DNA of 12,846 nt from a virus, in UHGV virus genome UHGV-0072830, one strand, 5' to 3'. The notes under the pieces were generated by a model, which saw only the letters and a list, made by a program, of their open reading frames with translations, was not told where the DNA came from and made no database searches. Both the position numbers and the translations under genes were made by a program. Shown here piece by piece: positions 7 to 12,846 of the stretch (position 1 is its first letter; every line of letters starts with the position of its first letter).

Positions 7-525
7 TTACTGGCGAAGGTCATCCGCCCCCCTGATATTCCAGATAGCCATTTCCACTTCGCGACGGTTCATCAGTCCTTTCCATTTATGGCCTGCGGCA
101 AACACCCAGCGGGCCATCTGGTCACGCGCTCCGGCGTAATCACCGGCATTGAGTTTTTTCAGCAGCGTTGATTTACTGAATGCGGTAACACCGGTGTTGA
201 AAATAAACGTTGCCAGCGCCGTTTTCTGATATGGCGTCAGCGGCACCCTGACAAGACGATCGATTGCCGCATAAACCGGTTTTAAATCACTGTCGAGGAG
301 AGCCATACACTCCGCATGGCTGTAACGGCGCATTTCGATATCCGGCCCGGTATGCCCCACACAGACCGAAAGCACACCGCCAATATCGCGGTAAGGCATA
401 TAAGCGATATTTTCCAGGTGGATCAGAGACTGACGGGTCATTTCCTGATAACCACCCACACCGCCACCGGCAATCGTTACAGCCAGCAGTGTGGCTTTCA
501 GTTTTTTTGGTATCCCCGCCATCAT
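7..525 (-). CDS. lys: Endolysin with N-terminal signal-arrest-release (SAR) hydrophobic segment (KKLKATLLAVTIAGGGVGGYQ); phage lysozyme
   Basis: 172-aa ORF, ATG at 525. Gly/Ala-rich hydrophobic N-terminus typical of SAR endolysins. Position immediately after C as in Mu. Weak SD (GGAAG). Confidence 0.8.
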   Translation of the reverse strand: MMAGIPKKLKATLLAVTIAGGGVGGYQEMTRQSLIHLENIAYMPYRDIGGVLSVCVGHTGPDIEMRRYSHAECMALLDSDLKPVYAAIDRLVRVPLTPYQKTALATFIFNTGVTAFSKSTLLKKLNAGDYAGARDQMARWVFAAGHKWKGLMNRREVEMAIWNIRGADDLRQ

Positions 526-596: not shown

Positions 597-621
597 AATA
601 ACCGGCAGGATGCCGGTTATT
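597..621. terminator. Perfect hairpin (aataaccggca-gga-tgccggttatt) overlapping the C stop codon; possible middle-transcript terminator, T-rich tail on both strands
   Basis: 11-bp perfect inverted repeat with 3-nt loop read directly from sequence. Followed by TATTT on the phage strand and TTTTGGGCTTT on the plus strand. Confidence 0.45.
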
Positions 622-1039
622 TTGGGCTTTCAGGTGAGAACAGATCAGGCTGATGACGTCGTGTATGCAGCTTTCTCTGGCGGGCAATAATCTGGTAGAT
701 CTGCGGCTGGGACAGGCGGTACTGGCGACGCAGTTCTTCCATGTTACGACCATTAAACTGGCAGTAAAGCAAATCGTCGCGTAACGCGGTCAGGATCGTA
801 TCGCCGCAGGGGATGTAAAACTGCCGTCCACCCAGAAAACAGGACAGGGCAACGGCCTGTTTACGGGCAAGTTCACGGGGATTGCTGACGTTCTGGCGTT
901 TCAGTTCGTTTTCCAGAACATCAATCAGATCAACCACCGAACGGGGCCAGCGTGATTCCAGTTCCGGGGCCGGGATGTTATCAATATGTCCGATTAACTG
1001 GCGAATTGCCGGATCGTGTTCAAATAAATCATGCTGCAT
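617..1039 (-). CDS. C: Late transcription activator C (Mor/C family)
   Basis: 140-aa ORF with SD GGGGGA upstream of ATG. C-terminal half shares motifs with the Mor ORF in this window (GG.Q.YIP.G, FNGRN..EL). Position upstream of lys. Confidence 0.8.
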   Translation of the reverse strand: MQHDLFEHDPAIRQLIGHIDNIPAPELESRWPRSVVDLIDVLENELKRQNVSNPRELARKQAVALSCFLGGRQFYIPCGDTILTALRDDLLYCQFNGRNMEELRRQYRLSQPQIYQIIARQRKLHTRRHQPDLFSPESPK

Positions 1040-1151
1040 ATTTTCCCCCGGTTAACAGACAAAAAGATACACCACGGCACTGATGGTTATCAAAACCACA
1101 AGGGCAATCACTTTTATCGCATTAATCAGCGTGGACGGCCCGAAACATTCA

Positions 1152-1436
1152 TCACTGAATTTTCTGTACACAATATTTTTCCTTATAACGTTGACAGTGG
1201 TGAAGAATTTCCGGCATATCAACTGACTGCCAGCCTTTCATGTAATAACTGCCGTGGGTGCCATCGTGCCCTGTGTAATCCATTGGCTTTGGTGGTGGGC
1301 CTCCGGCCTCCCGATGTAATACCTCCTGTCGTAAACGTTCACGCCTGCCGAACTGAAAGGACGCATCCCACCCTTTACCCATGCAGAACCTCCCGACAGG
1401 CGCTGGCGAGCAGATCCAGACGGTTAAACCAGCCAT
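1152..1436 (-). CDS. Hypothetical small ORF in middle operon; real start and reality uncertain (possible internal ATG at 1283)
   Basis: 94-aa ORF from the track overlaps the 3' end of the upstream gene by 62 nt and has no convincing SD. It fills an otherwise unexplained 335-bp gap between the GH108-like gene and C. Confidence 0.25.
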   Translation of the reverse strand: MAGLTVWICSPAPVGRFCMGKGWDASFQFGRRERLRQEVLHREAGGPPPKPMDYTGHDGTHGSYYMKGWQSVDMPEILHHCQRYKEKYCVQKIQ

Positions 1437-1935
1437 TCAGATATTTCCCCTGCGAGGCACTGGATTTGATAATCCCTGCGTAATAGCGGGAACGACGCAG
1501 GAAGCACTGCAACAGCAGCCAGTCAGTATCGGCACGCAGAACGGCTGCGCGTGTGTTTTTACCGACGATGCCATCATCATCAACACCTGCTGCCGCCTGG
1601 AGGATCTGAATCGCGCGTTTAACACCGTGCTGAACGGCAGCATCAAAAACGAATAAGGAAACGCCATCAGGCCATTCGTTACACTTTGCCGCCAGCCAGT
1701 AATCACGCCAGTAGATCTGCGCCGCCTGCTCGCGGGTTAAATCCTTAATGCGGGTATCAGGTTTTCCGTCACCGTTAACATCGGTTTTGCCATCAATAAC
1801 GCCGTCGCGACGGTCAGAAATACCGTATTTCGTTTCGCCGCCACGGTCGGCAGGATCATTAACATAGCCACCTTCAACATCAGGGCGTATAACGAAATTC
1901 AGCGAATGAAGGAATGCAGGGGAAAACTCAGGCAT
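1375..1935 (-). CDS. GH108-family-like muramidase with C-terminal peptidoglycan-binding-like domain
   Basis: 186-aa ORF, ATG at 1935 preceded by a perfect AGGAGG SD. N-terminal EGGYVNDPADRGGETKYGI motif is characteristic of GH108 lysozymes. C-terminal GWFNR-type motif resembles the associated PG-binding domain. Family assignment from memory, not searched. Confidence 0.7.
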   Translation of the reverse strand: MPEFSPAFLHSLNFVIRPDVEGGYVNDPADRGGETKYGISDRRDGVIDGKTDVNGDGKPDTRIKDLTREQAAQIYWRDYWLAAKCNEWPDGVSLFVFDAAVQHGVKRAIQILQAAAGVDDDGIVGKNTRAAVLRADTDWLLLQCFLRRSRYYAGIIKSSASQGKYLNGWFNRLDLLASACREVLHG

Positions 1936-1987
1936 GTTGCCCTCCTGTCATGAACGTTTTATCGTCACAACAGAATATTGAGGGCGT

Positions 1988-2010
1988 AAAAAAAGCCGGA
2001 TTAACCGGCT
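1988..2010 (-). terminator. Rho-independent terminator directly after mor (early-operon terminator)
   Basis: On the phage strand: AGCCGG-UUAAU-CCGGCU followed by UUUUUUA, preceded by an A-tract. Starts 8 nt after the mor stop codon. Confidence 0.7.
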
Positions 2011-2017
2011 TTACTGT

Positions 2018-2407
2018 TTAAAACAAAGGGGGGGAATACTGACGATACTTTATACGCCGCATTCGTCGGATGGCTTTATAGACTGTGTTAAATGTCACAC
2101 CATGACGGATTGCCAGTTCGTGAACATTGCGACCGTTGAAATCATTCCAGATACGCAAATCCCGAATAAGCGAATCCAGAACCTGACCGCGTGGAATGTA
2201 GACCTGACCGCCGCCCAGATGCTTACAGATAGCCACAACAATCTCCAGTGAATGGGCCGGGTCAACACCTAACCGGGACAATTCCCCGCGCAGTAAATCG
2301 TTCAGCTCCGCCAGCAGTGCCGGAAAGCGTGACGTATCCTCTGCGGGATTGTCAAGATGTGCCAGGATGGTGTCATCCTGCAAATCACCAAATAAATCTT
2401 CCGTCAT
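2018..2407 (-). CDS. mor: Middle operon regulator Mor (Mor/C family transcription activator)
   Basis: 129-aa ORF. ATG overlaps the gemA stop (ATGA). C-terminal HTH region is paralogous to the C ORF. Size and position match Mu mor (recollection). Confidence 0.85.
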   Translation of the reverse strand: MTEDLFGDLQDDTILAHLDNPAEDTSRFPALLAELNDLLRGELSRLGVDPAHSLEIVVAICKHLGGGQVYIPRGQVLDSLIRDLRIWNDFNGRNVHELAIRHGVTFNTVYKAIRRMRRIKYRQYSPPLF

Positions 2408-2955
2408 TGTGCCATCCTCCGTGTCTTTCTGGCACGGGCATAAGCCGCCGTCATGGCATCATAGCCGCGCAGTTCACGCCCGGACGGACTGACTGGCAAC
2501 GGAAGCCCGTGACGGGAAAAGGCTTCACGAATACAGCGGATATGCCACTGCTTGAGAGTTTCGAGAACAATCAACAGGGTGTCGCCATGACACCACGCCA
2601 GCGTGGAAACACCCTGTCCGCCATTACGTTTCGCCGTCAGGCGCTGAACATATTTATCCAGCGCCACATCACCGCCATCGGTAATAAAACCGTCTTCTGC
2701 CATCTGCTGCCAGACTTTGTATACCTTCTCGCGGGGCGTGACATGCCCCTTAAAGCGGCGACGTGGATGTTTATTCAGCTTCTTAAAGCCGCGTTCTTTC
2801 ATGGCATCGAGCACCTGTTCCAGTTGCGTAACCGTCAGCTCGCGGCAACTGATTTTGCCCGTTTTCTGCATCAGAAAAGCGCGGTAAGTGTCGTCGTCGA
2901 GTTGTAGCTCCCGACGGGCGACATGGATTAATTTAATCAGGGATGTGCGATTCAT
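2404..2955 (-). CDS. gemA: GemA-like early regulatory protein
   Basis: 183-aa ORF immediately upstream of and translationally coupled to mor. SD GGAGGT. Position and size as Mu gemA (recollection). Confidence 0.75.
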   Translation of the reverse strand: MNRTSLIKLIHVARRELQLDDDTYRAFLMQKTGKISCRELTVTQLEQVLDAMKERGFKKLNKHPRRRFKGHVTPREKVYKVWQQMAEDGFITDGGDVALDKYVQRLTAKRNGGQGVSTLAWCHGDTLLIVLETLKQWHIRCIREAFSRHGLPLPVSPSGRELRGYDAMTAAYARARKTRRMAQ

Positions 2956-3024: not shown

Positions 3025-3291
3025 ATGGAAAATAATGTACAACCTTATGATGTTGCAGGTTATGCGATTGCATCAGCACTGGTGCGCCTTCTGGTGAAGA
3101 AGGCGATCATCACCGCAGAAGAGGGCCAGGCCATTTTCAGCTCTTCAGCAGAGATTTTAAAAGATGCGCCTGCAATAAGAACAAGCCGCCGCGAAAACAT
3201 GCAACTGTCAAAGATCATGGAAGACATTATCAGTTCGTTAGACCCAGATGCTGACGGATCTCAAAAGCCTCAAACACATGAGCGTCAGTAA
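3025..3291 (+). CDS. Candidate opposite-strand small protein (88 aa) in the early-operon gap; uncertain
   Basis: ORF with SD-like AGAGAGGA 4-5 nt before the ATG. Sits in a 274-bp gap between early genes and overlaps the convergent 3230..3532 ORF by 62 nt. No promoter identified. Confidence 0.3.
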   Translation: MENNVQPYDVAGYAIASALVRLLVKKAIITAEEGQAIFSSSAEILKDAPAIRTSRRENMQLSKIMEDIISSLDPDADGSQKPQTHERQ

Positions 3292-8184: not shown

Positions 8185-10185
8185 TTAAATGGCTTTTTTA
8201 CGTCTGTTCTGTTCCAGAATATCCAGCGAATGATTCAGATATTCATCACGCTCAGTTTCGTATTCATCATCACGCTCCTGATTCTTCACCCGTTCCATAT
8301 TACCGGAAGGCCGGAAAATGCCGACAATTCGTGATTCTGGTGCTTCAGGTTCGGCTATCTGCGGCAGCAGCTCTGCCACTTCCAGTGCATCCATTTGTTT
8401 CTGTGCCTTAATCGCTGCTTTCGTCGCAGATTTCAGTTGTTTCTGGCGGCGGCGATATTCACGGCCTGCCGCAGCATCATTAAACGCAACAGGTGACAGA
8501 CATTCCGCTTCACAGATAAACCGACCGTCCAGGGTGTAGCAATAAACCGTGCTGTGTAACTGCTGTGGATCAAATCTGACCACAACTTTTTTCACTCCGG
8601 CATTCATTAACGCCATGTTGTAATAAACGTTTTTCGCACCTTTAAGGGAGCCGCCAACTTTAAGCGCGAACTCGCCTTTACGTGAAACGTTCACCGCCTC
8701 GGCAGGCAGTAACAGCATCCGTTTTTGCTCTTCGGTAGGCTTACGCACAATCGTTCTGGCGTATTCACGCTCAAAAACGTCATCAAACGAAAGTTTGCCT
8801 CCGCACATTTCTGTTTCACGGCCTGTTCTGGCATTGAACATCGCCACACCTTCGGCAAGGGTTTTCAGAAACAGCTCTGCATCAACAGCGCGGTCGCCAT
8901 AGTTATCAGGTTTTGCCTGCGGATTAGGCCCCGTATATGCGCCAGCCAGTGCCGGATGCTTATCAACGTATTCCTCAAGCCCACCAACACCGAAAGCACG
9001 TTCAACAGGTTTTGCCTGGCCCCAGCCTTTACCGGCAACAACGCTTGTCCAGTGCATTTTCGCCCCCATCAGTAAAAACAGTCCTTTTGGATCGTCCTCT
9101 TTTACCTTAAAGCGGTAGCGATTGGGCGCGCCTCCCGTCAGCCATTTATTCGCAGCACCACGGGTGTTATCAATGGTGATGTGAAAATCCTCCGGGATAC
9201 CGTAGCGAGTCACAACATCCATGAACGAGAGGCGAATTGAATCAATGTTCTCGCTCACATCGCAGCGCCAGCCCAGAATTTTTCGGGTTTTCACATCCTG
9301 CCAGAACCATGTTTTCGGGCGGATCACATCACCGTTAAACCAGCGTACAAAGACGTTATGCAGATAACCGTCGCCGTTGATCCACTGCATGGCGTCCAGG
9401 TGTTCCACAGTTCGTTGTTGTGCCGGTATCAGATGCATCAGTGCATGTTCACCTTCACGGCAGGCAACAACCATTGCCTCGTTCAGTTGCTGAATCCGGC
9501 GAAAGGCCGTGGCACGGGAGGGAATACTCCAGCCATGCTCGCGGGCTGCCAGTTCCAGACGCTCATAACATTTGCGGAAGGCGGGTTTTTCCGGTCGCAG
9601 ATAATCTGCAATCAGAAACTGCCAGGCATCCTCGTCAAATTCACTTTTGTGAACATTGCGACGGGATGCACCACGTCCATCAACAAGAGCAGCCGCCCAG
9701 TCAGGCTTCGCAAACTTCTGTACCTGGTAATACTTGTCACGCAAAGTGGATGCGCTGACCTGGTAATGTCCTGCAACGGTCGCAAAAGCCGTTTTTGTTG
9801 AAATCCCCTGGTTCAGCATTTCGTCTGCGGCCTGAACCGCAGGCAACCATTTTTCAGCAAGTCTGCGCTGGGAATCGCTGGCGTTATCCCATTTGCTCCA
9901 CAGCGCCTCGCGATCATAATCGTGGGCTTCCAGCGTGGGGCGGGCGATTTCAAAACGGCCCATGCTTGTTTCAATCTCTCCTTGTCTAAGCAATAACGCA
10001 GCTTGCGTTTCCTTTGGTAAAGATGAGATATGAAACTCATAGGCTACTCCTCTTACCCCGTGTATCTGTCGAAACACCCACTGTTCTAACCTTGCTTTAC
10101 GAGAGATCGCGCTAGAGGATTTTGGAAGACCTATCAGCCCTTCTAATTTCTTTGCAGAAAACCAATCATTACATTGTGGTTGCAT
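8185..10185 (-). CDS. A: DDE transposase A (Mu/D108 family); likely start ATG 10185 (track ORF starts at TTG 10191)
   Basis: About 666 aa. The body matches my recollection of MuA (from [11 protein letters not shown] onward). N-terminal ~60 aa differ from Mu and resemble the repressor N-terminus in this window. GAGGT SD 7 nt before ATG 10185. Confidence 0.95.
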
Positions 10186-10415: not shown

Positions 10416-10605
10416 TCCTCACAAGCTACGCCATCAGCTACGCCGCAAGGTAGCTGACAAGGTATGCAGCAATGTTAGTGTGAATACATTGTCAATGCAA
10501 TGATGTATTCAAATATTTCGTTTGAATTTCATCTATCTTGATGATTTTAAAATGAATATATTTTTGTTTCTTTGAATACACAGTGTATTTAAAGCGAGGT
10601 TTGTG
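10416..10605. promoter_or_regulatory. Immunity/operator region between ner and c; expected to hold divergent early and repressor promoters and the operators (transposition enhancer in Mu-type phages)
   Basis: 190-bp AT-rich divergent intergenic region. Contains palindromes built on TGAATACA half-sites at 10481-10511 and 10570-10594, and a GC-rich dyad at 10434-10457. Confidence 0.75.
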
Positions 10606-11121
10606 ATGACACAAGAATGGTTTTCAGCTAAAGAGCTACAAGGGGTTGCTGGTCTTCCGTCTTCAGCAAGTAGTATTAGCCGCAAAGCAACTAATGAGGG
10701 ATGGAAAAAGAGACAGATCAAAGGAGTAAAGGGAGTTGCTTATGAATACCATATCAGCTCATTACCTGATGCCACTCAGGCAGAATTAGGAGGGGCGCAG
10801 TTATTAGATAGCGATAAGCCAGCTTATAAGTTAGCTTCTGTGTTAATGGCTTTGGTCGCAGAGTTAGAACCAGAGGAAATCCAGAGGGCATTAAAGCTAC
10901 TTAGTAAAGGCGGACTTGGAGCACTAATGCCAAGTATCTTTGATCAGACTCAAATCCAATCTCTGCACGGCGTATCGCGTGAGTGCATACAACTAGCCCA
11001 AATGCTAGAAACTTTACCAGCAGATGCGCGCAAAGAGATTTTGTCAGAGTATGGTATTCATGAACAGGAAGGTTTTGTAGCTCCTTCACAAGAACCACAA
11101 GATGTAAAAAAAGCCGTATAA
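10606..11121 (+). CDS. c: Lysogenic repressor c (D108 type)
   Basis: 171 aa from ATG 10606 with GAGGT SD. N-terminal domain is homologous to the N-terminus of transposase A in this window. C-terminal LKLLSKGGL...[13 protein letters not shown]...[12 protein letters not shown] matches my recollection of the Mu repressor C-terminus. Confidence 0.85.
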
Positions 11122-11455: not shown

Positions 11456-11459
11456 TACA

Positions 11460-12846
11460 ACGGGGGATTACTCAATTGGTTTGCTAAGTCAAACGAGTGG
11501 AAACCTGAATACTGACACCATAATAAGAGTCAACTCTGACGGTTCGGTTACCCCCTCTTTTTCTGACGGAGATGATACATTTATTGTTACTGCGGGTAAT
11601 CACGCAGTCGGCGTTCTTGCGTGTGCATCTCCCGGAAGCGCGCGTGCGTGTGTATCTTCTCTTGATGAAGAAAGTACTACCGATACAGGAAGTAATGAAA
11701 ATAATGCCATAGCAAAACTGGATATGGCAAAAGGGGAGATCACAACCCACGGAACAGAAAGTTATGCCGCGTACGCTAATGGCACTGTCGTCAAGGCTGG
11801 TGACACGCTTGATTATACCAATGCCAGCGTTACATTAACCGATGTTGATATCACCACGCATGGGGACAATGCTCATGCCATCGCTGCCCGCCAGGGGACA
11901 GTTTCATTTAACCAGGGAGAAATTTATACAACGGGTCCTGACGCCGCGACTGCTAAAATTTATAATGGCGGCACGGTGACGCTGAAAAATACATCTGCAG
12001 TCGCGCATCAGGGGTCTGGAATTGTGCTGGAGTCTTCCATAAATGGTCAGGAAGCAACGGTAGATATTTTATCTGGTAGCTCACTACGGTCAGCAAATGA
12101 AATCCTCTACCATAAAAATGAGACGAGTAACGTGACCATTACGGATAGTGAGGTATCATCGGCTGCAGATGTTTTTATCAATAATATTAAAGGTCATTTG
12201 ACCGTCGATGCAACTAATTCAAAAATAACGGGTTCAGCTAATATTTCAACAGATGTTAACACTCATACCTATCTGTCGCTTTCAGATAATAGTACCTGGG
12301 ATATTAAAGCTGACTCAACGGTGAGCAACCTCACGGTTGATAATAGTACGGTCTATATTTCCCGGGCAGATGGACGGGATGTCGAACCAACAAGATTAAC
12401 AATAACTGAAAATTACGTTGGTAATAATGGCGTATTGCATCTCAGAACTGAATTGGGTGATGATAATTCAGCTACGGATAAAGTCGTTATTAATGGAAAT
12501 ACCTCTGGAACAACCCGAGTTAAAGTTACCAATGCAGGAGGCAGCGGAGCTTACACGTTAAATGGGATAGAGATTATCAGCGTTGAGGGGGAATCAAATG
12601 GGGAATTTATTAAGGATTCGAGGATTTTCGCCGGTGCCTACGAATATTCATTAACCCGAGGTAATACCGAAGCGACCAATAAAAACTGGTATCTGACTAA
12701 CTTCCAGGCAACGAGCGGCGGTGAAACAAACTCCGGAGGAAGTTCAGCGCCTACTGTTGCGCCTACCCCCGTCCTGCGCCTCGAAGCTGGAAGTTACGTC
12801 GCCAACCTGGCAGCCGCTAACACTCTTTTTGTTATGCGTCTGAACG
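11460..12846 (+). pseudogene. Host autotransporter (type Va) passenger-domain gene fragment, 5'-truncated by the prophage insertion; runs off the window end
   Basis: 462 stop-free codons verified in frame from the base after the phage terminus to the window end. Nearest upstream in-frame stop (11448-11450) is inside the phage end. No signal peptide or plausible start. Ser/Thr/Asn/Gly-rich beta-helix-like sequence ends with the autotransporter junction motif PVLRLEAGSYVANLAAANTLFVMRLN. Confidence 0.75.

Follow-up and report, generated by a model that had tools for sequence, protein, structure and literature searches.

The DNA analysed here (hereafter the window, 12,846 nt of UHGV virus genome UHGV-0072830) belongs to a Mu-like E. 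coli prophage that encodes a normal lysis enzyme together with an intact second muramidase, which is the customary lysis enzyme among its Mu-like relatives but is lacking in Mu. The second enzyme is of the GH108 type, and we consider it probable, at roughly two chances in three, that it is an accessory cytoplasmic endolysin acting after the pathway of the signal-arrest-release (SAR) endolysin has breached the envelope. The GH108 gene is of an ordinary kind and implies no new mechanism.

Identity and fold of the second muramidase

The sequence-only reading that we followed up had proposed a GH108-like murein hydrolase with a peptidoglycan-binding-like C-terminus on the minus strand at 1375-1935, and the 186-residue open reading frame lies exactly there (Table 1). 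Both Pfam profiles matched far above their cut-offs, namely Glyco_hydro_108 (PF05838) with an E-value of 9.3e-25 (87.4 bits, cut-off 21.2) and, C-terminal to it, PG_binding_3 (PF09374) with 6.8e-14 (52.3 bits, cut-off 24.6), and PHROG 315 ('endolysin') matched the same frame at 1.4e-51. The muramidase motif claimed earlier, VEGGYVNDPADRGGETKYGIS, is present and is followed by DRRDGVIDGKTDVNGDGKPD. The triad E21/D30/T35 is intact: E21 sits inside the VEGGY motif, all three residues are invariant across a 136-sequence alignment, as are W169 and R172 of PG_binding_3, and they align with E17/D26/T31 of SagA, the catalytic triad of that enzyme (PMC8334348).

The AF2 model (pLDDT 96.4, pTM 0.91) has a two-domain helical fold, consisting of a catalytic flap domain and a helical-bundle substrate-binding domain. 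Its best Foldseek matches are 7DNP (SagA), 2IKB (NMB1012), 6V3Z (Sen1395), 2NR7 and 6V40 (TtsA), each of which, like 2IS5, scores a probability of 1.00. SagA of Brucella abortus (7DNP) and NMB1012 of Neisseria meningitidis (2IKB, 2IS5) are closest in sequence and fold (Foldseek TM 0.64-0.76; PDB sequence matches of 2.1e-17 for SagA and 1.4e-20 for NMB1012) and share the E-D-T triad and the helical peptidoglycan-binding domain, although SagA is encoded in the chromosome and acts as an autolysin for a type IV secretion system. TtsA of Salmonella Typhi (6V40) and Sen1395 of S. Enteritidis (6V3Z) have the same fold and triad and likewise no signal peptide, but they are only 21-24% identical to the GH108 protein, and TtsA, unlike phage lysins, serves toxin secretion. 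Domain matches, invariant triad and fold concur in supporting a second murein hydrolase of the GH108 type with a peptidoglycan-binding C-terminus, which we predict to be a soluble N-acetylmuramidase with a PG_binding_3 substrate-binding domain and presumed enzymatic activity. Neither of the outcomes named beforehand as refuting this reading, a lack of profile matches or a dead active site, was observed. A 19-residue Kyte-Doolittle scan found no N-terminal hydrophobic or SAR segment; the peak value of 0.93 is internal (residues 94-112, inside the fold), and residues 6-15 form helix 1 of the GH108 fold in the AF2 model. Because it has neither a signal nor a membrane segment, the protein is predicted to be cytoplasmic.

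The two-domain fold held in common with TtsA and SagA brings up a different role, that of a non-lytic peptidoglycan remodeller like these Salmonella and Brucella enzymes. It would then make local openings in the wall so that proteins can be exported or machinery assembled, or would work for the lysogen instead of for lysis. Expression earlier than that of the late lysis genes, as predicted here, would suit such a function. We nevertheless regard it as very improbable: the protein is related to, but not a member of, the TtsA-type holin-associated N-acetylmuramidase equivalog of NCBIfam (NF040573; 71.2 bits, with 240 required), neither a secretion system nor a cargo for one is encoded nearby, the gene lies in a Mor-controlled lytic-cycle operon and not in a lysogenic one, and in relatives the cassette that separates mor from the packaging genes yielded no other lysozyme-type gene.

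Genomic context and middle promoter

Table 1. Features of the window around the GH108 gene (dyad, Shine-Dalgarno site and genes listed by position)
Feature	Window position	Strand	Residues or size	Basis and remarks
Late endolysin, Mu gp22 homologue (SAR endolysin)	7..525	minus		Pfam Phage_lysozyme 3.8e-36
Late activator C, last middle-operon gene	617..1039	minus		Pfam Mor family 9.4e-34; = Mu_21
gp20 homologue	1052..1171	minus	39 aa	GTG start; one predicted transmembrane segment; sequence comparison
gp18 homologue (Mu E18)	1152..1382	minus	76 aa	phrog_2121; 83% identity to Mu gp18
GH108 + PG_binding_3 muramidase gene	1375..1935	minus	186 aa	ATG start; Pfam
PG_binding_3 domain	1417..1617	minus	107-173	Pfam
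GH108 domain	1624..1878	minus	20-104	Pfam
Asp/Gly-rich loop, DRRDGVIDGKTDVNGDGKPD	1756..1815	minus	41-60	Alignment, AF2
Catalytic codon T35	1831..1833	minus	35
Catalytic codon D30	1846..1848	minus	30
Catalytic codon E21	1873..1875	minus	21
Core promoter region and 5' UTR	1936..1984	minus		Alignment with Mu
Shine-Dalgarno AGGAGGG	1940..1946	minus		5 nt 5' of the ATG; sequence
Dyad AAAGCCGGTTAATCCGGCTTT and T-run	1985..2012	minus		= upstream dyad of Mu Pm (Mor-binding element)
Mor, middle-promoter activator	2018..2407	minus		Pfam Mor 5.9e-30; = Mu_17

The SAR endolysin that had been read at 7-525 was borne out: the frame matches Phage_lysozyme (3.8e-36), its most hydrophobic 19-residue stretch is N-terminal (residues 1-19), and its Mu counterpart is annotated as SAR endolysin gp22. 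Mu gp22 and, by prediction, the GH108 protein are muramidases with an E-D-T triad. Mu gp22, however, is a T4-lysozyme-like Phage_lysozyme protein with an N-terminal signal-arrest-release anchor, expressed from the late promoter Plys and released by gp25, whereas no membrane segment was found in the GH108 protein, whose gene lies in the Pm operon.

Placement of the GH108 gene in the middle operon holds by homology. It is the first gene after the Mor-binding dyad, lies 5' of the gp18, gp20 and C homologues and is co-oriented with C, and the terminator scan found no convincing terminator between GH108 and C, only one weak terminator-like site within the coding region. The dyad is identical to that of Mu. 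In the Mu record (AF083977) Pm occupies 9163-9233 and a terminator 9179-9200, the element being annotated as the terminator after mor as well. A simple terminator scan missed this known hairpin, which folding recovered (-12.2 kcal/mol, z -3.3). The exact 24-mer of the dyad recurs in 43 of the 80 phage loci surveyed and in five reference loci, where it precedes GH108 or gp18. Downstream of the dyad, the core promoter and 5' UTR, assigned from the GenBank feature and sequence identity, are Mu-like up to ...CCTCAATATTCTG (window ~1971) and beyond that point specific to the GH108-carrying lineage; the extra sequence relative to Mu, about 590 bp, begins in the core promoter and ends at the gp18 ATG. 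By homology with Mu, we infer that transcription of GH108 from Pm would depend on Mor. The Shine-Dalgarno site of the gene, described earlier as the strongest in the window, forms a duplex of -10.8 kcal/mol with the anti-Shine-Dalgarno sequence; it is indeed among the strongest, but not uniquely so, being tied with gemA and a 60-aa open reading frame (both -10.8) and slightly exceeded by gp18 (-11.0).

The gp18 homologue, whose frame overlaps the GH108 stop by 8 nt, is a conserved downstream partner of GH108. It shares 71% identity with its counterpart in Klebsiella Kp4866-3 and 37-40% with the Vibrio and Shewanella phage proteins encoded behind GH108, and its dN/dS is 0.05-0.16. The AF2 model (pLDDT 84) is a three-helix protein for which Foldseek returned nothing significant in the PDB (best E 0.9; ribosome modulation factor at E 4.4), and our local Pfam copy gave no match. 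The PHROG 2121 profile spans both gp18 (positions 3-75) and a ~200-aa membrane protein (positions 88-272), and for this reason we had suspected a gp18-holin fusion by a Rosetta-stone argument; the idea was dropped after a profile search of 5.8 billion proteins, in which all 60 gp18 clusters were 51-96 aa long and none was fused. The gp20 homologue (maximum hydropathy 2.96) is 100% identical to SfMu gp20 and 95% to Mu gp20.

Distribution among Mu-like phages

Our IMG/VR survey comprised 80 gp18 loci (8 kb each), of which 57 have a single Mor-type activator (one-activator loci) and 23 are Mu-type. GH108 lies just upstream of gp18 in all 57 one-activator loci, which are arranged as mor, GH108, gp18, membrane proteins, TraR and DUF2730, with DUF2730 about 1.4 kb downstream of GH108 in every case, and no other lysozyme was detected within these 8-kb loci. 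Among the Mu-type loci, 10 of 23 carry GH108 and 13 lack it, as Mu does; DUF2730 is found in the GH108-bearing ones as well. Expression from the middle operon, rather than from the lysis cassette, had been thought odd for an endolysin. This does not hold, since the mor-adjacent position is the GH108 site in 57/57 one-activator loci.

Individual relatives show the same arrangement. In Klebsiella Kp4866-3, Vibrio 1.028.O and Shewanella MuM16-2, the gene order is mor, GH108 and a gp18-like gene, and in a Mannheimia Mu-like phage a GH108 + PG_binding_3 'lys' is annotated directly after mor (PMC4553209). The GH108 endolysins of these phages (Kp4866-3; vB_SspM_MuM16-2 p20; 1.028.O gene 20; Mannheimia 3927AP2 'lys') are two-domain proteins like the one in the window, which is 72% identical to the Klebsiella Kp4866-3 protein and 43-44% to the Vibrio and Shewanella proteins. 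As in the window, the relatives have GH108 3' of mor with a gp18-like gene next to it, and the enteric phages have the same dyad element; they differ in having a single Mor-type activator, no other lysozyme match in the surveyed region, and a 135-aa protein with four transmembrane segments (4-TM) and/or a ~200-aa protein, TraR and DUF2730 after GH108. The 135-aa 4-TM and 200-aa membrane proteins, which follow GH108-gp18 in one-activator phages, are absent from the window phage, in which gp20, C and the SAR endolysin cassette take the place of the membrane partners and GH108 becomes a second lysin. Weak GTA_holin_3TM matches of the ~200-aa protein (E 8e-4 to 5e-3, below cut-off) give only a hint of its nature. 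In most Mu-like phages of Enterobacterales, Vibrio and Shewanella, GH108 is the sole detected lysozyme-type gene of the mor-proximal cassette.

Domains of the GH108 type also occur within very large proteins of 728-1217 aa, possible components of virions or secretion systems, which would agree with a virion-associated lysin that digests the wall at DNA injection. For the protein studied here such a role is hardly credible, given that it is small and free-standing, has its gene beside regulators in the middle operon and not among the head and tail genes, and in relatives belongs to the cassette between mor and the packaging genes.

Complete E. coli genomes seldom carry the gene: the GH108 region is present at >=80% coverage in 8 of 5426, and most of the other 40 matching genomes have the gp18 region only. 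The prophage of E. coli SE11, like prophages of other strains, has two muramidases. In the corresponding region Mu has only gp18, gp19 and gp20, and SfMu only gp18 and gp20; GH108 is lost or absent in D108 too.

Selection and evolutionary history

The GH108 gene is under purifying selection, as its copies in the window and in the SE11 prophage differ by 23 synonymous and 2 non-synonymous changes (dN/dS 0.024). This bears on whether the gene is a functionless relic of an ancestral lysis cassette, in the course of being lost as in Mu, D108 and SfMu. Its absence from 13/23 Mu-type loci and from most Mu-like prophages of complete E. coli genomes, as well as the normal lysis of Mu without it, would agree with a relic. 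We rejected the relic or pseudogene reading on dN/dS, a value of 0.024 over 23 synonymous changes between two Mu-type copies, and it is rendered highly unlikely also by the intact reading frame, the invariant catalytic triad, the strong Shine-Dalgarno site and the near-identical copies in the plaque-forming Yersinia phages vB_YpM_5 and vB_YpM_6.

Between Mu-type and one-activator phages, amino acid identity is 72% for GH108, 63% for mor and 71% for gp18, which fits co-divergence of GH108 with mor and gp18 rather than recent capture. A recombination junction inside gp18, near window 1272, shows that the module has been shuffled between lineages, so that in single Mu-type lineages the presence or absence of GH108 may reflect gain as well as loss. 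In one-activator phages a Mor-dependent promoter would drive the whole cassette, from GH108 and gp18 through the membrane proteins and TraR to DUF2730. In the Mu lineage a second activator (C), the SAR endolysin and the spanins lie between the front of this cassette and its DUF2730 end; the front part would have become the 'middle operon' of Mu, and the window prophage, like about 4 in 10 of the Mu-type loci surveyed, still keeps GH108 in it. Seen in this light, the long-unexplained, non-essential middle genes gp18 and, probably, gp19 of Mu look like what remains of the front of an ancestral Mor-driven, GH108-led lysis cassette.

Proposed role in lysis

Mu has no holin, and its gp19, gp20 and gp25 are not holin-like (PMC9239132). 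An accessory cytoplasmic endolysin, the role we favour, would be produced and used as follows. GH108 would be transcribed from Pm with gp18, gp20 and C at middle times, and the enzyme, with no export signal and in a phage without a holin, would build up harmlessly in the cytoplasm. It would meet peptidoglycan only once the pathway of SAR endolysin, releasin and spanin has breached the envelope, and the second muramidase activity would then speed or complete the breakdown of the wall. We call the enzyme accessory because Mu lyses without GH108, and no route to the wall before the breach is evident because the usual 4-TM and 200-aa membrane partners are missing. Both the route to the wall and the contribution to lysis are what we infer for this phage. 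Purifying selection this strong points, however, to more of a benefit than mere 'clean-up'.

DUF2730 proteins pair with cytoplasmic endolysins in other Mu-like phages (PMC9239132), and a more prominent part for GH108 has to be weighed on this account, that of a self-sufficient or back-up endolysin let out by the DUF2730 releasin gp25, encoded downstream of the window, or by gp20, in which case lysis could proceed without the SAR endolysin. DUF2730 is described as a conserved partner of non-SAR endolysins in many Mu-like phages (PMC9239132) and was present in all one-activator loci and in the GH108-bearing Mu-type loci surveyed, and the strong purifying selection suits a role of importance. We think this unlikely, however: Mu gp25, gp19 and gp20 show no holin-like lethality, there is no known mechanism by which a releasin would export a folded 21-kDa protein, and the 4-TM and 200-aa membrane proteins are missing from the window phage.

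Mu-type phages with two muramidases exist naturally, as Yersinia phages vB_YpM_5 and vB_YpM_6 and as prophages in E. coli SE11 and other strains. They could reveal by what means a cytoplasmic endolysin acts when the phage has no holin, and they bear on whether DUF2730 'releasins' serve non-SAR endolysins, a question from Chamblee et al. 2022.

A conserved Asp/Gly-rich loop

The sequence-only reading had described a loop after KYGI as unusually rich in Asp and Gly and as resembling DxDxDG-type calcium-binding motifs. Composition and resemblance both stood, but the loop is not unusual: of 120 GH108 clusters whose 50%-identity representative had a locatable catalytic motif, 33 carry a DxDxDG-like motif in the equivalent place. 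The core, D52-V-N54-G-D56-G57-K-P-D60, forms the tip of a predicted beta-hairpin (strands 50-51 and 61-62) that AF2 models with a pLDDT of about 94-95. Among 27 sequences with the same loop form (26 representatives of 50%-identity clusters and the query), D41, D44, G45, D48, D52 and G57 are invariant, and D56 is kept in 25, D/N54 in 24 and D60 in 24. The loop is a conserved feature of a GH108 subfamily, and calcium binding by this candidate site is plausible. We found no paper on calcium and GH108 endolysins, the paper on the GH108 endolysin UE-M6 reports no metal tests, and a PDB search with the 33-residue loop peptide returned only a designed coiled coil (E 0.6).

With seven near-invariant acidic residues within 20, the loop could conceivably be a calcium switch that gates the muramidase, an idea we hold to be rather doubtful. 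In the cytoplasm, where free Ca2+ is sub-micromolar, the enzyme would lack activity or be loosely folded, and only contact with periplasmic or external Ca2+ would switch it on. If true, this would explain how a signal-less lysin can be produced safely from the middle promoter of a holin-less phage, and about one in four GH108 clusters would belong to a Ca2+-gated subfamily. The acidic loop, conserved in a sizeable subfamily of GH108, is a candidate metal site that is also relevant for the engineering of GH108 antibacterial endolysins. SagA and NMB1012 have a shorter segment in place of this 28-residue Asp/Gly loop. In the GH108-fold protein PG_0293 of Porphyromonas gingivalis (2NR7), in contrast, the G-[IV]-[ST] motif is likewise followed by an acidic loop, DKDGDGDIDVED, with DKDGDGDID in the matching place. 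The spacing of that loop is the complete EF-hand/dockerin-like one of 12 residues, the last of them acidic, where the window loop has Ile, and the window loop has an additional upstream D-x-x-D-G-x-x-D-G repeat.

A predicted second muramidase gene at the head of the middle operon

The window includes ~11.5 kb from the left side of a Mu-type prophage, oriented right to left (see table). The Mu left end (attL sequence, ...TTCGTACTTCAAGTGAATCAATACA) ends at 11459, and the flank beyond it is an E. coli gene split by the insertion, so the prophage sits in an E. coli chromosome. Over its first 3 kb the window is 99.4% identical to the Yersinia phages vB_YpM_5 and vB_YpM_6. Although it stems from an E. 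coli lysogen, the phage records nearest to it are of isolates from Yersinia pestis. Mu, D108 and SfMu show 94-96% identity over only ~80% of these 3 kb, because they lack the segment with the gene under study, hereafter the GH108 gene. Among the early genes, an 88-aa ORF lies on the strand opposite to all those around it; a CDS is annotated at the matching place in SfMu (SfMu_16) and vB_YpM_5, and a DUF2513 gene occupies this place in E. coli SE11.

Features of the Mu-type prophage and its flank, listed leftward from the host junction
Feature	Position	Strand	Remark
Flanking host gene	11460-12846		E. coli autotransporter adhesin gene
Repressor	10603-11121	+	first gene from prophage end, reading leftward
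ner, A, B			leftward of repressor
Run of small early genes, gam			between B and gemA
88-aa ORF	3025-3291	+	
gemA	2404-2955		
mor	2018-2407		
Terminator dyad	1985-2012		AAAGCCGGTTAATCCGGCTTT and T-run
GH108 gene	1375-1935	-	186 aa
gp18 homologue	1152-1382	-	76 aa
gp20 homologue	1052-1171		39-aa membrane ORF, GTG start at 1171
C	617-1039		
Late endolysin gene	7-525		

The Mu GenBank record places the Mor-dependent middle promoter Pm at 9163-9233, where it overlaps the terminator hairpin that closely follows the activator gene mor; Pm drives genes 18, 19, 20 and the late activator gene C. The dyad and T-run of the window are identical to those of Mu, and the sequence beside them follows Mu up to ...CCTCAATAT(T/C)CTG. 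Where this match ends, the window and the related prophage of E. coli strain SE11 both carry ~590 extra bases, which comprise a short leader, a Shine-Dalgarno site and the GH108 gene, and which run precisely up to the start codon (ATG) of the gp18 homologue; this homologue overlaps the GH108 stop by 8 nt. A terminator scan found no convincing terminator from the GH108 gene to C. The sequence-only reading had assigned the gene to the middle operon, and the Mu-identical dyad upstream and the lack of a convincing terminator before C bear this out: homology gives good support to the prediction that the Pm transcript has GH108 as its first gene. The same reading had called its Shine-Dalgarno site the strongest in the window; AGGAGGG is indeed strong (-10.8 kcal/mol), but the sites of gemA and a 60-aa ORF equal it, and the next gene has a marginally stronger one.

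Identity, active site and localisation

As claimed, the ORF is present at 1375-1935, on the minus strand, and encodes VEGGYVNDPADRGGETKYGIS followed by DRRDGVIDGKTDVNGDGKPD, and its assignment to the GH108 type with a peptidoglycan-binding C-terminus holds in Pfam, where Glyco_hydro_108 (E 9.3e-25) and PG_binding_3 (E 6.8e-14) both score far beyond the curated cut-offs. It also matches an endolysin family in PHROGs (1.4e-51). The gene is a GH108 endolysin of Mu-like phages, an already known kind of gene. Members of GH108 are N-acetylmuramidases in which a flap bearing a lysozyme-like E-D-T triad closes over a helical peptidoglycan-binding domain (SagA, PMC8334348; TtsA). By sequence, the closest proteins of solved structure are NMB1012 (1.4e-20), Brucella SagA (2.1e-17), P. 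gingivalis PG_0293, Sen1395 and TtsA, and the same five are the top PDB matches of a very confident AlphaFold model (pLDDT 96.4, pTM 0.91) whose input was an alignment of 136 diverse family members. E21, D30 and T35 align with the catalytic triad of SagA (E17, D26 and T31; PMC8334348), described for TtsA too, and are invariant throughout this alignment. The Pfam matches, the invariant triad and the confident model with its GH108-fold matches indicate that the predicted active site is intact and the enzyme not catalytically dead. The observation of a second murein hydrolase is confirmed, and its interpretation supported.

The protein has no signal sequence, and a 19-residue hydropathy scan found no hydrophobic segment (maximum 0.93, inside the fold), so it is predicted to be cytoplasmic. 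The late endolysin differs in having its most hydrophobic stretch at the N-terminus; its Mu counterpart is annotated as a SAR endolysin, the name that the sequence-only reading gave it.

Distribution and selection

Among the Mu-type phages of the GenBank phage collection, the GH108 gene occurs only in vB_YpM_5 and vB_YpM_6, where it is annotated as hypothetical; the paper describing both phages does not mention it. The GH108 region reaches at least 80% coverage in 8 of 5426 complete E. coli genomes, while 40 further genomes match the query partly, most in the gp18 region only. In SE11 (NC_011415; L007 2041-4259), GH108, gp18, gp19', gp20' and C' come before a different Phage_lysozyme protein of 142 aa and then DUF2730, which is a second, independent two-lysin arrangement.

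The GH108 genes of the window and SE11 differ by 23 synonymous and 2 non-synonymous substitutions (dN/dS 0.024), which is strong purifying selection in lineages that also have a late endolysin. That the gene is a relic is unlikely, and a decaying one is ruled out by this ratio between the two copies. The gp18 gene is strongly constrained too (dN/dS 0.05-0.16), and this holds even for Mu, which lacks GH108. In Mu-like phages of Enterobacterales, Vibrio and Shewanella, the gp18 homologue (E18) invariably follows GH108. This protein matches PF26867 in a precomputed Pfam table, with no such match from the local Pfam copy; AF2 models it as a three-helix protein, and no fold in the PDB matched.

Proposed origin of the middle operon

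The 76-aa ORF downstream of GH108 is 83% identical to Mu gp18, and a gp18-like gene also directly follows GH108 in Klebsiella phage Kp4866-3 (71%), Vibrio phage 1.028.O and Shewanella phage MuM16-2 (37-40%). We surveyed 8-kb loci from 80 viral contigs encoding a gp18 relative and typed the neighbouring genes. Of these, 57 have a single Mor-type activator. After mor, and in some after a small membrane protein as well, they carry GH108 and gp18, then in most a 135-aa 4-TM protein, followed by a ~200-aa protein, TraR and DUF2730; GH108 is immediately upstream of gp18 in all 57, and the search of the 8 kb found no second lysozyme in any of them. The other 23 are of the Mu type, with gp20, C and a late endolysin, and GH108 is present in 10 and absent from 13. 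All four combinations of GH108 and gp19 presence and absence occur among the surveyed loci, including a Mu-like locus with both (L022). Twenty-one one-activator loci have the exact 24-nt dyad upstream of GH108, and 22 of the 23 Mu-type loci have it too. Mu gp19 is probably a diverged counterpart of the 135-aa protein, which has the same position (hhalign probability 87%, E 4e-6, although membrane-protein profile matches need caution). Between the two architectures, GH108 is 72% identical at the amino acid level, similar to mor (63%) and gp18 (71%).

Given this survey and the similar divergence of GH108 and its neighbours, the Mu middle operon appears to be the leading part of an ancestral lysis cassette under Mor control, with C, the SAR endolysin and the spanins occupying, in the Mu type, the place that the ~200-aa protein and TraR have in one-activator phages. 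GH108 would then be the original endolysin, which Mu, D108 and SfMu have lost and some lineages have kept. A middle-operon position had seemed unexpected for an endolysin; the constant GH108-gp18 order of the one-activator loci accounts for it. The evolutionary interest lies in the origin of the orphan middle genes of Mu and in the existence of natural two-lysin Mu relatives.

The gp18 homologue contains a recombination junction at ~1272. On the upstream side, which spans Pm, GH108 and ~37 initial gp18 codons, the window is 95-98% identical to the SE11 prophage, and beyond the junction (remaining gp18 and gp20) it is 100% identical to SfMu. The module has therefore also been swapped between lineages, so that gain and loss of GH108 are not assignable lineage by lineage. 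Set against Mu (L002 2181-2543), the window at 1040-1171 lacks the 4-TM gene 19, as does SfMu.

Proposed role in lysis

Mu has no holin, and gp19, gp20 and gp25 are not holins (Chamblee et al., PMC9239132); the Mu lysis pathway uses the SAR endolysin gp22 with the releasin gp25 and spanins, and inactivation of genes 19 and 20 has little effect on lysis (PMC9239132). Since the GH108 protein lacks a signal sequence and Mu lysis takes this holin-less route, the most economical model, at a probability of roughly 0.65, is an accessory cytoplasmic endolysin. The protein would be made from Pm alongside C and build up in the cytoplasm like canonical endolysins. After the SAR-endolysin pathway had compromised the envelope, it would reach the wall and serve there as a second muramidase that brings a binding domain of its own.

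The main rival, which we consider improbable, has the DUF2730 protein release GH108 as well, so that GH108 would be a true back-up lysin. DUF2730 proteins are paired with cytoplasmic endolysins in other Mu-like phages (PMC9239132). The membrane proteins that follow GH108-gp18 in one-activator phages are missing here, a difficulty for this rival and the accessory model alike. They include the ~200-aa protein (phrog_1544; L004 5176-5781, L005 4264-4854, L006 4280-4888, L008 3009-3617), whose similarity to the GTA holin family is weak and sub-threshold (Pfam GTA_holin_3TM, 3 of 4 members). This protein is a candidate holin for the GH108 endolysin; both the Vibrio and the Shewanella phage show a 16-nt overlap between its gene and the gp18-like gene. 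A non-lytic role of the kind played by TtsA or SagA, both among the closest structures, is unlikely, as is a virion lysin.

A candidate metal site in the Asp/Gly loop

The segment after G-I-S is acidic, and longer than in SagA and NMB1012. The sequence-only reading had called the loop unusually Asp/Gly-rich; it is rather a subfamily trait, since a DxDxDG-like motif occurs at this place in 33 of the 120 cluster representatives whose catalytic motif could be located. In the 27 sequences of the exact loop form (26 representatives and the query), D41, D44, G45, D48, D52 and G57 are invariant, and D/N54 (24/27), D56 (25/27) and D60 (24/27) nearly so. The proposed likeness to DxDxDG-type motifs stands for the near-constant D52-D60 core, which the predicted structure puts at the tip of a hairpin modelled with confidence. 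At the corresponding position, PG_0293 (2NR7) carries DKDGDGDIDVED, a textbook EF-hand/dockerin-like sequence. A literature search found no paper on calcium binding by such a GH108 loop; the conserved core, its position at the hairpin tip and the likeness to PG_0293 make calcium binding a reasonable hypothesis and the loop a candidate metal site.
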